Shown here piece by piece: positions 6,001 to 9,000 of a stretch of 29,435 bases of DNA (position 1 is the stretch's first letter; every line of letters begins with the position of its first letter). Made by a program: the position numbers. Source of the DNA: Elusimicrobiales bacterium (GTDB lineage: Bacteria > Elusimicrobiota > Elusimicrobia > Elusimicrobiales > UBA9959); the NCBI GenBank assembly GCA_049972095.1, contig JBMFKQ010000021.1, positions 1 to 29,435 on the forward strand. The letters run 5' to 3'.

Positions 6001-9000
6001 TTTTTAATAAGAGCCATAACTGCAGCAAAGCCACCTATTGTTCTTGTAGAGTTTTGTTTATCCCATTTTGCAGGTATCGATGAATACATCCCATGAACAT
6101 CGCTTGTGTGGTATATAGATATCTTTTCTGAATATATCCATGAATATAGAAAAAGTAATATTACAAAGGATAGCATTTTTTTCATATTACCCCCTTTTTT
6201 CTTTTTTTAAGAATGAATATTATAAATTCTGCTGCTGAAATCATCTCTCTATATATGTTATCATATTTGATAAAAAGGGGAAAATTGTCTTTTAATGTAG
6301 TTGAGATGCTTTTTCTTTCAAGCTCAAGATTTTTTTTTAGTTCAATGATGGATTTAATATGTGTTTTATCAGTAATTTCTTCAAACATCTCTATGTATCT
6401 TTTTATTTTTGGATTAGAGCTGTTGACTGTTAGTTTTTTTATATCATCAAGAGTTTTTTTTATTTCAGGTATTTTGGTCATAGAAAACTTTGCACTTTTA
6501 AGTGGGGTAAAGAGTTAAAGATGATGTTGCAGTTTATCTCTTTGAGAACTGGAACCTCTTTCTTGCCTTTGGTCTTCCTGGTTTCTTTCTTTCAACCATT
6601 CTTGGATCTCTTGTTAAAAATCCCGCTTTTTTCATTGCTTGACGAAAACTTTCTCCTAATTTTGATATTGCTCTTGCTATGCCATGTCTTATTGCTTGAG
6701 CCTGAGCTGAAATCCCACTTCCGCTGACATCGACATAACAATCAAACTTTTGATCCTTAACCAGATCAAGAGGTGAGGTTACTATATTTTTTAGCCTTGA
6801 AATATTGCCAAAATATACACCAAGCTCTTTTCCATTAACAGTTATTTTTCCACTTCCACTTGGAAAAAGCCTTACTTTTGCTCTCGCTGTTTTTCTTCTT
6901 CCTGTTGCATATATGAACTCCATAAATCACCTCTCATTTCTTAACAGGTATGGCTATGTCTATTTTTTCATCTTTGTAAAGTCTAAGTCTTTTTAGCCTT
7001 TTGTCTCTGAGTTTATTTTTATCAAGCATCCTCTTAACTGCAAGGTAAAGGACCTTTCTTGAATCTTTTGTCATCATATCCTTAAATGATATTATCCTTG
7101 CTCCTTTTGCATAACCTGAATGTGAGAAATAAAATTTCTCTTCCTCTTTATTTCCTGTTAACTTTATTTTGTCGGTGTTGGTTACAACTACGAAGTCACC
7201 ACAGTCTATGTGAGGTGTATAATAAGGTTTGTTTTTACCGCACAGTAGAGTTGCTATTTTTGAGGCCATTCTACCTAATATCTGACCTGTGGCGTCTATA
7301 ATATGCCACTTTCTATTTCTTTCAACAAATTCTTTCGTTGGCAAAGTAGTTTTTGTGTTCATAATATAAAGTATAGCAAATTTTGTATATTAAAAACAAA
7401 CTTTTTGCTAAAATAAAGGTTGGTAAATTTCTCTTAAAGAGAAAACTTTAGCGCTCATAGCTCAATGGATAGAGCAACGGCCTGCGAAGCCGTAGATTCG
7501 GGTTCGATTCCCGATGAGCGCATGCTGGTGCTAAGAAATGCGAATAGCATTTCGTGGGAATCGAAAGCCCGCAGCAAAACATATACAATTCAGTTTTGCG
7601 AGGGGCGGCCTGCGAAAAATTTTGCGGTGAGCAAAATTTATTTGTAGGCGATTCCCGATGAGCGCATGCTGGTGCTAAGAAATGCGAATAGCATTTCGTG
7701 GGAATCGAAAGCCCGCAGCAAAACATATACAATTCAGTTTTGCGAGGGGGGACTTGCGAAAAATTTTGCGGTGAGCAAAATTTATTTGTAGGCGATTCCC
7801 GATGAGCGCATATAAGGAGGGAGGATGAAAAACAATAGTGATATGAAAAAGGAGATAATAAAAAGGGTCGATAGAGAAGGTATAAGTTTTGTAAAGCTTT
7901 GCTTTGTTGATATTCTTGGACAGATAAAAGCCTTTACAATTACAAGAAGAGAACTTGAGCATGCCTTAAATGAAGGAATGGGTTTTGATGGTTCATCAAT
8001 AGAAGGATTTGCAAGAATCTATGAATCAGATCTTCTTTTAATGCCAGACCCAGAGACATTTAACATACTTCCTGAGGAGTTTGATGGCACTAAGACTGCA
8101 ATAATGTTTGGGGATATTCTCACACCTGAAGGTAAGCATTATGATGGTGATACGAGATATATCCTTAAGAAAAATCTTGATTATATGAAGAAGATGGGCT
8201 TTACTGATTTTATGGTTGGCCCGGAATTAGAGTATTTTTATTTTAAATCCTGTGAAAAGCCTGAGATAATTGATGAAGGAGGATATTTTGACTCAGTTCC
8301 AATAGATGAGGCAAGTGATTTAAGAAAAAAGACAATAGAGGTGCTTGACAAGATGGGGATACCGGTTGAGTATTCTCATCATGAGGTTGCTCCAAGTCAG
8401 CATGAAATAGATTTGAGATATAGCGATGCTATTACTATGGCTGACAGAGTGGTAATGTATAAGCTTGTTGTAAAACAGGTTGCTGCAAAAAATGGTGTCT
8501 ATGCAACATTTATGCCAAAGCCATTAAATGGTGTTAATGGAAGTGGCATGCATGTTCATCAATCTCTTTTTAAAAATGGCAAAAATATGTTTTTTGATAA
8601 AAATGATCCTTATTTTTTATCAAATCACGCAAAGTTCTATATTGCTGGGCTTATGCATTATGTGAGGCAGATATGTATAGTTACAAATCAGTGGGTTAAC
8701 TCATATAAGAGATTGGTGCCTGGTTATGAAGCACCTGTGTATATTGCATGGGCAAGAAGGAATAGATCAGTGTTGATTAGAGTTCCTCAACCAAAGTTGG
8801 GGAAAGAAAAGGCAACAAGAATTGAAGCAAGATTTCCAGATCCCGGTGCAAATCCCTATCTTTGTTTTGCTGTTATGCTTAGAGCTGGGTTAAAAGGTAT
8901 AGAAGATAATATGAAGATTAAAGAACCTGTTGAAGCAGATGTCTATGAAATGAGTGAGATAGAAAGAAAGGCGAATAAAATAGAAACCTTACCAGGCTCG

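Follow-up and report, generated by a model that had tools for sequence, protein, structure and literature searches.

The genome studied here, that of a bacterium of the order Elusimicrobiales, very probably decodes the arginine CGN codons without wobble inosine: a tRNA-Arg with the anticodon GCG would be the working reader of CGU and CGC, tRNA-Arg(UCG) would read CGA and CGG, and tadA would have been lost. In the canonical bacterial system, tRNA-Arg(ACG) is converted to the ICG form by the homodimeric TadA, and tRNA-Arg(CCG) is present in addition; the genome differs from this system in having G34, in lacking TadA and in carrying a UCG tRNA that replaces CCG.

Results

The window, the whole stretch of 29,435 nucleotides that was analysed, belongs to contig C21 of the genome (58 contigs; rated 96.5% complete and 0.45% contaminated). 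It carries the tRNA-Arg(GCG) gene, and the tRNA-Arg(UCG) gene lies on contig C3:

7451..7522, + strand, tRNA-Arg(GCG) gene (ARAGORN; Rfam RF00005)
7484..7486, + strand, anticodon GCG (position 34 according to ARAGORN, also read off the sequence)
C3:10849-10923, tRNA-Arg(UCG) gene (ARAGORN)

The tRNA-Arg(GCG) that the genome-wide survey's note had placed at C21:7451-7522 is intact. ARAGORN calls a tRNA of 72 nt with discriminator A and without an encoded CCA, the sequence folds into a regular cloverleaf with an acceptor stem of 7 bp, an anticodon stem of 5 bp, the anticodon loop CUGCGAA, a D-loop of 8 nt and a variable loop of 4 nt, and the Rfam tRNA model RF00005 gives it 76.1 bits (gathering score 29). 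The arginine identity bases C35 and G36 are present in the anticodon as read from the sequence, and in the D-loop, AAUGGAUA, G18-G19 are followed by an A that we take to be A20, a base with a role in ArgRS recognition. Under the wobble rule, G34 forms a regular pair with C and a G-U wobble pair with U, so that this tRNA is predicted to read CGC and also CGU. The gene lies between rplM-rpsI and glnA, and its 3' end is involved in a tandem repeat (144-bp repeat), within which read contigs from two sequencing runs break when compared with positions 7000-8400; one contig of run X1 spans 7000-7534 and departs from the window at one position, 7419, X1 being possibly the source sample and hence non-independent. 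The RpsI, RplM and GlnA proteins of the genome had no tblastn match at 25 tRNA-Arg or tadA loci of relatives, so this context is not common to them.

A rerun of ARAGORN on all 58 contigs found 42 tRNAs, among which the arginine anticodons are only tct, tcg, gcg and cct, as had been reported; no tRNA with A34, and thus no tRNA-Arg(ACG), is among the 42. The UCU and CCU tRNAs would read AGA and AGG. The same note had claimed that TadA is absent and that the single deaminase-family gene encodes a cytidine deaminase, and on both points our searches agree: PF14437 has 0 matches at E<=1, NF008113 (TadA) has 0 matches at E<=10, and tblastn of the genome with 12 TadA sequences from within the phylum reaches a best E of 0.086. 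PF00383 detects one real gene, C25:2878-3162, which encodes the tetrameric cytidine deaminase Cdd (TIGR01354, 138.4 bits; cut-off 113.65) and is the sole CDA-fold gene. With no A34 tRNA in the cell, nothing would be left for TadA to edit, and tadA has disappeared.

It could be objected that the ACG tRNA and tadA are merely unassembled and that tRNA-Arg(GCG) is an extra isoacceptor. The survey's caveat about incompleteness is justified: the assembly is in 58 contigs, its completeness figure counts marker genes rather than tRNAs, and tRNA-Ile(GAU), Ala(UGC) and Thr(UGU) are absent from it according to ARAGORN, so that for this genome taken alone a missing ACG gene is possible, three expected tRNAs being absent as well. 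However, a gap in one assembly does not explain what is seen in the relatives. An ACG tRNA pattern matched 0 of the 151 genomes of the order, which extends the earlier survey from the loci hit by a GCG query to ACG tRNAs elsewhere in these genomes. For TadA, a match was accepted if it reached the curated NF008113 cut-off of 150 bits or was full-length like the TadAs of the phylum; scores are bimodal, the true TadAs of the phylum reaching 99.6-211 bits over model positions of about 4-155, and the best NF008113 match in the order has 88.9 bits over positions 4-112. By this standard there was no TadA-grade match in the 70 order genomes of the phylum sample or, at E<=1e-25, in the 80 genomes of the genome's own family, f1, 52 of which are at least 90% complete. 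The single-contig relative G042 has the identical four arginine tRNAs (cct, gcg, tcg, tct) and no TadA, and acg is absent from the 33 distinct tRNAs read there. In a sample of 22 genomes of the class, moreover, none of the seven ACG-bearing genomes carries GCG by the strict pattern. An assembly artefact is therefore hardly credible.

These counts have to be read in the light of the methods. Whole-genome ARAGORN was applied to the genome under study, and counts in the other genomes rest on patterns and fetched loci. The strict tRNA patterns miss variant D-arms: GCG was unmatched in 16 of the 151 order genomes, and in a method control the ACG pattern was found in 96 of the 106 phylum-sample genomes with a TadA-grade match and missed in 10, so that the 0/151 for ACG is strong but not absolute. 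Among the 15 class genomes without TadA, a GCG pattern anchored on the D-arm picked up only 4, owing to variant D-stems; the remaining ones were recovered by a covariance model (R1) with ARAGORN and by a pattern without the D-arm. The covariance model was unspecific, giving all tRNAs 25-85 bits, and served only to fetch loci. The DnaG tree was a quick version.

With a GCG anticodon-arm pattern, 135 of the 151 order genomes were matched, in all three families, as the survey had found on fewer genomes; since the reversed pattern gave 0 matches in the order, tRNA-Arg(GCG) is not a chance feature. The ACG pattern matched 100 of the 201 genomes of the phylum, every one outside the order, and ACG and TadA occur together in 96 of the 131 sampled genomes outside it. 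In six genomes of other classes neither ACG, GCG nor TadA was matched, probably because of assembly gaps. The class sample divides cleanly: 7 of its 22 genomes have ACG and TadA (E<=1e-51) without GCG, and the other 15 lack both ACG and TadA and carry GCG without exception. The trait had been presented as one of Elusimicrobiales, and it does hold in the whole order, but it is not special to it, as five further families of the class Elusimicrobia are also GCG-bearing and TadA-less. ACG and TadA, often as an adjacent gene pair, are kept in three other families of the class and in the other classes, and this canonical set would be the ancestral state of the phylum. The TadA-less genomes of the class include sizes of 2-4.6 Mb, and some of their members keep a CCG tRNA (ARAGORN at loci). 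Because a UCG tRNA pattern was found in 70 of 70 order genomes and also in each of the 7 genomes of the class that have TadA, tRNA-Arg(UCG) appears to be older than the loss of TadA.

Another explanation would make tRNA-Arg(GCG) a dispensable relic, with one tRNA-Arg(UCG) of unmodified U34 reading all CGN codons. CGN codons are indeed rare, at 6.4% of arginine codons (1156/17941 in a crude set of 956 ORFs), so that selection on the CGN box would be weak in this genome, and the 3' end of the gene takes part in the tandem repeat noted above. On the other hand, the gene is intact and scores well above the Rfam threshold, and a GCG tRNA has been kept in 135 of the 151 order genomes and in every TadA-less genome of the class sample, among them genomes of up to 4.6 Mb. 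Also present is MnmG (679 bits), on which the xm5U34 modification depends; with this modification U34 can read both A and G. U34 of tRNA-Arg(UCG) thus probably carries the modification and is confined to A and G. PMC3711424 describes decoding by a single UCG tRNA in one Mollicute, Mycoplasma haemofelis, and for the present lineage we consider it very unlikely. A working tRNA-Arg(GCG) beside a tRNA-Arg(UCG) limited to CGA and CGG remains the preferred reading.

The survey had been concerned that relatives carry deaminases of 150-190 aa beside tRNA-Arg(GCG). PF14437 has matches in 141 of the 151 order genomes, mostly in frames of 147-200 aa, and for 8 of 11 small deaminases scanned the best NCBIfam model is TadA NF008113, at 69-84 bits (34-84 bits for all 11), which might suggest that TadA was kept as a diverged orthologue with another substrate. 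We rejected the TadA name for these proteins: all scores are below 150 bits, the matches cover model positions of about 5-113 of 165 with the C-terminal part missing, and TadA emerges as the best name because NCBIfam has no model for guanine deaminase or yeast-type cytosine deaminase. Against solved structures, the f1-type deaminase aligns end-to-end with yeast cytosine deaminase (134 bits versus at most 85 for any TadA) and the f2-type with the Bacillus guanine deaminase 1wkq (209 bits versus at most 94); a third type matches structure 2g84, and a fourth matches ComEB/dCMP deaminase models. In blastp, all 50 small deaminases sampled had a closer match among these four non-TadA types than among 12 TadAs taken from the phylum, and neither the genome under study nor genus g3 has any small deaminase of the PF14437 type. 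The concern is thus removed, the proteins being GuaD-type guanine, yeast-type cytosine and dCMP deaminases, and a diverged TadA is extremely improbable.

The gene neighbourhoods in the phylum suggest how the change may have come about. At three loci of TadA-bearing members (L071, L069 and L074), tRNA-Arg(ACG) and tadA come after a gene for a cyclase and one for a membrane protein; at a fourth, L261, this pair of genes precedes tRNA-Arg(GCG), with tmRNA next. Such an occupation of the ACG slot by a GCG gene was observed in a single TadA-less genome, G193, and the context in the genome under study differs. The arrangement is consistent with a tRNA gene that changed in place from ACG to GCG and with deletion of the neighbouring tadA; beside 17 GCG tRNA loci, a tblastn search for tadA remnants gave nothing better than E 0.031. 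The switch would have occurred within the class Elusimicrobia, once or a few times. If the ancestor already had tRNA-Arg(UCG), inosine would have been required only for CGU and CGC, which a G34 tRNA could read equally well. We give about even weight to the fuller proposal that a non-reduced clade, the order and at least five sister families, lost an ancestral linked ACG-tadA pair, possibly once, that the pre-existing UCG tRNA enabled the loss, and that the G34 tRNA took the old slot in at least one genome.

The tRNA bodies themselves are homologous, 30 of 74 columns being invariant in the alignment of the tRNA under study with the ACG tRNAs of the phylum, and acceptor stems are common to both. 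The GCG tRNAs of the clade differ from the ACG tRNAs of the phylum in D-loop length, variable loop (4 versus 5 nt), T-loop and discriminator base, and many other phyla have GCG tRNAs in which the D-arm is the same, both of which would suit a transfer of the GCG tRNA from Archaea or another GCG-bearing phylum instead of descent from the resident ACG gene. However, the short D-loop, the 4-nt variable loop and A73 also occur in some UCG, CCG and UCU tRNAs of TadA-less relatives, so that these features look specific to the lineage rather than to the isoacceptor. Together with the common acceptor stems and the GCG gene in the ACG slot, this makes transfer unlikely, and we favour derivation from the resident gene. 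All five GCG-bearing genomes tested from other phyla were without TadA and without ACG.

Discussion

Inosine-free decoding of CGN codons is already known from several bacterial groups, to which the Elusimicrobia add a further lineage. The survey's description of A34-to-inosine editing as near-universal was therefore overstated. According to PMC8007984, the Thermotogae and Spirochaetes are whole phyla with tRNA-Arg(GCG) instead of ACG, and Diwan and Agashe (2018; PMC6063277) count five major losses of TadA in their main text. As in the Elusimicrobia, these losses of TadA are described there as accompanied by loss of the target tRNA, non-target tRNAs being present. Compared with the Thermotogae and Spirochaetes, the difference is that here the switch lies within one class, in which ACG-plus-TadA and GCG-only families stand side by side. 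The main text of PMC6063277 does not name the Elusimicrobia, and its supplements might list Elusimicrobium among the 1093 genomes.

The closest parallel is provided by the Mycoplasma pneumoniae group of Mollicutes and M. pulmonis, for which TadA-less CGN decoding was reported by Yokobori et al. (2013; PMC3711424). In that report, these Mollicutes have the same set as our genome, tRNA-Arg(GCG) and UCG with no ACG, CCG or tadA, and the same order of events is proposed, UCG first and then the change from ACG to GCG with loss of tadA. In the Mollicutes, however, the change is linked with extreme genome reduction, whereas the TadA-less clade of Elusimicrobia includes genomes of 2-4.6 Mb, and a weakening of TadA and the loss of CCG came before it, whereas some TadA-less Elusimicrobia keep CCG and no weakened TadA was seen among them. 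Archaea, according to PMC8007984, lack all ANN anticodons and any A34 deaminase, and their arginine box likewise uses G34 rather than I34 for CGU and CGC. The likeness appears to be one of decoding: the tRNA of our genome is readily aligned with bacterial ACG tRNAs from the same phylum, and nothing in this alignment of bacterial tRNAs points to archaeal descent.

A search by title and abstract found no literature on the tRNA anticodons of Elusimicrobium, and none of the 15 papers listed, of 75 matched, on an absence of tadA or of wobble inosine mentions the Elusimicrobia. TadA is reportedly essential in E. coli (Wolf et al. 2002, as cited in PMC6063277) and is the parent of the adenine base editors, and lineages without it can therefore show which tRNA set makes TadA dispensable. 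The mechanism is already in the literature, and the gain from the Elusimicrobia is one of detail, not of principle: the lineage is well sampled, the switch falls between sister families of one class, tadA and the gene of its substrate tRNA were ancestrally adjacent, and the compensating UCG tRNA is clearly earlier. If a loss in a single clade is true, TadA-bearing and TadA-less sister families would offer a clean natural series for studying the dispensability of the enzyme. For annotation, our results carry a warning: matches of 150-190 aa to MafB19-deam in Pfam or to TadA in NCBIfam are, in these genomes, guanine, cytosine or dCMP deaminases.

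The arginine tRNA set and the absence of TadA

The genome under study (G000; 1.44 Mb in 58 contigs, 96.5% complete and 0.45% contaminated, the window being contig C21) yielded 42 tRNAs with ARAGORN, among which the arginine anticodons are tct, tcg, gcg and cct; acg and ccg are absent, and A34 occurs in no tRNA of any type. No TadA was detected in this genome with PF14437, the MafB19-deam family (no match at E<=1), with NF008113, the NCBIfam model of TadA (no match at E<=10), or in a tblastn search whose 12 TadA queries came from other classes of the phylum (best E 0.086). Its one real gene of the cytidine/deoxycytidylate deaminase family (PF00383) encodes a tetrameric cytidine deaminase of 138 aa (TIGR01354, 138.4 bits) and adjoins a purine nucleoside phosphorylase-like ORF. 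The genome-wide survey's note had proposed that CGN codons are read here without inosine, by a tRNA-Arg(GCG) and with neither tRNA-Arg(ACG) nor TadA, and every fact that it listed proved correct.

The same note conceded that tRNA-Arg(ACG) or tadA might simply be unassembled. Ile(GAU), Ala(UGC) and Thr(UGU) were likewise not found in the G000 assembly by ARAGORN, so this assembly does lack some tRNA genes, which favours such a gap. Among the relatives, however, a pattern covering the D-stem, anticodon loop and T-loop of tRNA-Arg(ACG) matched 0 of the 151 genomes of the order (G000 counted in), although it matched 100 of 201 genomes in a sample of the phylum, every one of them outside the order. 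The pattern is not blind, being present in 96 of the 106 phylum-sample genomes with a TadA-grade match. The corresponding GCG pattern was found in 135/151 genomes of the order, G000 again included (69/74 plus G000 in its own family f1, 63/74 in f2 and 2/2 in f3), and in 20 of its 22 genera; a reversed-pattern control gave 0 matches. G042, a single-contig genome of the order (1.6 Mb), was missed by the strict GCG pattern and has a GCG tRNA with a variant D-stem; its 30 best covariance-model loci gave 33 distinct tRNAs, with exactly the arginine set of G000 (cct, gcg, tcg and tct), and it does carry Ile(gat), Ala(tgc) and Thr(tgt). With no ACG match across the order and this arginine set in G042, an assembly gap is not tenable for the lineage and very unlikely for G000, which removes the reservation.

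The tRNA-Arg(GCG) gene and its neighbourhood

ARAGORN places two tRNA genes in the window, the first of them between rplM-rpsI and glnA:

7451-7522, + strand, tRNA-Arg(gcg) (ARAGORN)
21328-21409, + strand, tRNA-Leu(gag) (ARAGORN)
6534-7362, - strand, rplM-rpsI, one flank of tRNA-Arg(GCG)
7825-9162, + strand, glutamine synthetase gene (glnA), the other flank

The tRNA-Arg(GCG) cloverleaf is regular, with an acceptor stem of 7 bp, an anticodon stem of 5 bp, the loop CUGCGAA, a variable loop of 4 nt and discriminator A; CCA is not encoded, and the gene scores 76.1 bits against the Rfam tRNA model (gathering score 29). A tandem repeat at 7505-7811 (unit 144 bp, 2.1 copies as assembled, 98% matches) begins within the T-arm, so that the tRNA's final 18 nt are found again near 7649 and near 7793, the second time shortly before glnA starts at 7825. 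A 10-nt string identical to the anticodon arm is likewise part of every unit, and Rfam detects no further tRNA in the repeat. Contigs from two public runs end inside the repeat. Two hot-spring metagenome runs, from two studies, contain 83-89% of sampled words of window positions 7000-8400. Elsewhere in the window, no Pfam family matches the long ORFs at 12274-14286 (- strand, 670 aa) and 16833-18191 (+ strand, 452 aa) at E<=1e-10.

Small deaminases of the relatives

PF14437 has matches in 141 of the order's 151 genomes, and most lie in frames of 147-200 aa, which at first sight contradicts the absence of TadA. With the NCBIfam library, which lacks models for the alternative deaminase families, TadA was the best model for 8 of 11 small deaminases, but at 69-84 bits (cut-off 150) and over positions ~5-113 of 165. 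Across the 201-genome phylum sample the NF008113 scores are bimodal, with 106 genomes at 99.6-211 bits (positions ~4-155); of the 70 genomes that represent the order, G000 among them, none exceeded 88.9 bits (best match over positions 4-112). At a threshold placed between the two modes (E<=1e-25), which 8 of 14 control genomes pass, none of 80 genomes of G000's family has a TadA match.

Solved structures point to other identities. For the f1-type deaminase, yeast cytosine deaminase gives an end-to-end alignment of 134 bits, where the best TadA reaches 85 in a partial one; for the main f2 type, the end-to-end partner is Bacillus guanine deaminase 1wkq at 209 bits, compared with 94 for the best TadA; a third type matches structure 2g84 and a fourth ComEB/dCMP-deaminase models. 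By blastp, all 50 sampled small deaminases of the order group with these four types (guanine-deaminase type 30, cytosine-deaminase type 16, dCMP type 3, 2g84-like 1), and 0/50 are nearest to any of the phylum's 12 TadAs. The partial, sub-cut-off NF008113 matches, the structures and the blastp result together make it very unlikely that these proteins are TadA. The survey's other worry, deaminases of 150-190 aa beside tRNA-Arg(GCG), is thereby dispelled. In genera g3 and g8 and genome G035, PF14437 frames are of RibD length only (362-390 aa); DnaG of g3 groups with that of G000 (SH-aLRT 100).

Decoding of CGN codons

G34 of tRNA-Arg(GCG) would read CGC and CGU, and tRNA-Arg(UCG) would read CGA and CGG, a CCG tRNA being absent from G000. 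Since MnmG is present (679 bits), U34 of the latter probably carries an xm5 modification and reads A and G. In a crude set of 956 G000 ORFs of at least 200 codons, CGN makes up 1156 of 17941 arginine codons (6.4%; CGT 428, CGC 263, CGA 319, CGG 146), the remainder being AGA and AGG; the box is thus lightly used.

Distribution in the class and phylum

The phylum sample includes 22 genomes from other orders of the class. Seven of them (families f4, f10 and f11) have the ACG pattern and TadA (E<=1e-51), with no GCG by the strict pattern; the other 15 (f5-f9) have neither ACG nor TadA, and tRNA-Arg(GCG) was detected in 15/15 (by strict pattern in 4, covariance model and ARAGORN in 3, and a D-arm-free pattern and ARAGORN in 8). 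The other classes are represented by 109 genomes: ACG and TadA occur together in 89, TadA alone in 10, ACG alone in 4 and neither in 6. The last three groups, 20 cases in all, are scattered, and 14 of these genomes are below 95% completeness, so we read them as assembly or pattern misses. G158, G160, G205, G229, G233 and G266 lack ACG, strict-pattern GCG and a TadA-grade match; covariance-model loci fetched from all but G160 gave CCG, UCU and His tRNAs and no GCG, and these six could represent assembly gaps or further independent changes.

In a quick maximum-likelihood tree of a single gene, DnaG (31 rows, G000 and 30 chosen genomes), 16 TadA-less rows (f1, f2, f3, f6, f7 and f8) are grouped by a branch with SH-aLRT 95. 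The three remaining TadA-less rows, one of f5 and two long-branched ones of f9, are not in this clade; a branch of SH-aLRT 95 parts them from it, and the forks closest to them have support of 80-84. Holding all 19 TadA-less rows together was not rejected by the AU test (delta lnL 1.76, p 0.455), so a single loss of TadA is compatible with the data, and up to three are possible on this one gene. G000 and genus g3 share a long branch in this tree; the G000 genome is AT-rich at 34% G+C and, with 1.44 Mb, small for a family whose genomes span 1.4-4.5 Mb, mostly 2-3.5 Mb.

Relation to known cases

The combination of tRNA-Arg(GCG) with neither ACG nor TadA is thus confirmed, and the sequence data support an inosine-free reading of CGN. 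The Mycoplasma pneumoniae group has the same tRNA layout and no tadA (PMC3711424); a survey of 1093 genomes traces TadA to the bacterial ancestor by inference and counts five major losses, in each of which the target tRNA is lost too while non-target tRNAs are present, with Spirochaetes and a proteobacterial class as unexplained cases (PMC6063277); and a review states that tRNA-Arg(GCG) replaces ACG in all sequenced Thermotogae and Spirochaetes (PMC8007984). A scan for the GCG arm with the G000-type D-arm, one genome per species, gave at least 120 loci; among the 80 matches listed are Planctomycetota, Actinomycetota, Chloroflexota (including Dehalococcoides), Methylomirabilota, Armatimonadota, Thermotogaceae, Treponema, Nautiliales, candidate-phyla-radiation groups and Elusimicrobia. 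Five of these genomes, from Dehalococcoides, Treponema, Nautiliales, Planctomycetota and Thermoleophilia, were tested, and 5/5 have neither a TadA-grade match nor the ACG pattern. Elusimicrobia thus adds one more well-resolved case of an alternative already known and is not a new phenomenon. We found no paper naming it in the context of TadA loss or GCG (for PMC6063277, in the main text). New details are the boundary within one class, the ancestral linkage of tRNA and tadA, a same-slot replacement in one genome, a UCG tRNA apparently already there beforehand, and the identification of the look-alike deaminases.

Probable origin of the switch

The UCG pattern occurs in 70/70 genomes of the order sample and in 20/22 of the class, including all 7 that retain TadA, compared with 30/109 in other classes and 0/63 in f13, a family of another class. 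tRNA-Arg(UCG) would thus predate the switch and, as it reads CGA and CGG, inosine would have been required just for CGU and CGC.

Of the 96 phylum-sample genomes having both, 29 carry tRNA-Arg(ACG) and tadA on the same contig no more than about 2 kb apart (coordinates compared by hand); in 27 of these the gap is at most 0.8 kb and tadA lies downstream on the same strand. ARAGORN confirms the tRNA at 5 of the 12 best TadA loci, at a distance of 35-265 nt upstream from the tadA frame, or 46-336 nt when measured from the model match; tadA directly follows tRNA-Arg(ACG) at L066, L069, L071, L072 and L074, all in other classes. The linkage is absent from family f13. L071, L069 and L074 each show a nucleotide-cyclase-domain gene followed in turn by a membrane-protein gene, tRNA-Arg(ACG) and tadA; TadA-less G193 (locus L261) has the same two protein genes (30-52% identity), then tRNA-Arg(GCG), then tmRNA, with no tadA remnant at the locus. 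The tmRNA gene (L261:1560-1926; tag GEPLALAA by ARAGORN) starts 15 nt after the tRNA and fills the place held by tadA in TadA-bearing relatives.

Aligned GCG and ACG tRNAs share 30 invariant columns of 74 and have acceptor stems in common, and are unlike in D-loop length, variable-loop length, T-loop and discriminator. Because the short D-loop, 4-nt variable loop and A73 also occur in some UCG, CCG and UCU tRNAs of TadA-less relatives, we read these peculiarities as lineage-wide drift and not as a mark of foreign origin. This reading agrees with steps 4 and 5a of the model proposed for Mollicutes (PMC3711424). In family f9, the tRNA-Arg(GCG) of G214 (L077:1481-1552) and the tRNA-Arg(CCG) of G234 (L085), from another genus, are identical except at 3 of 72 positions, position 34 among them, which looks like a shift of the anticodon from one arginine isoacceptor to another. 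G234 carries a separate GCG tRNA as well (L269).
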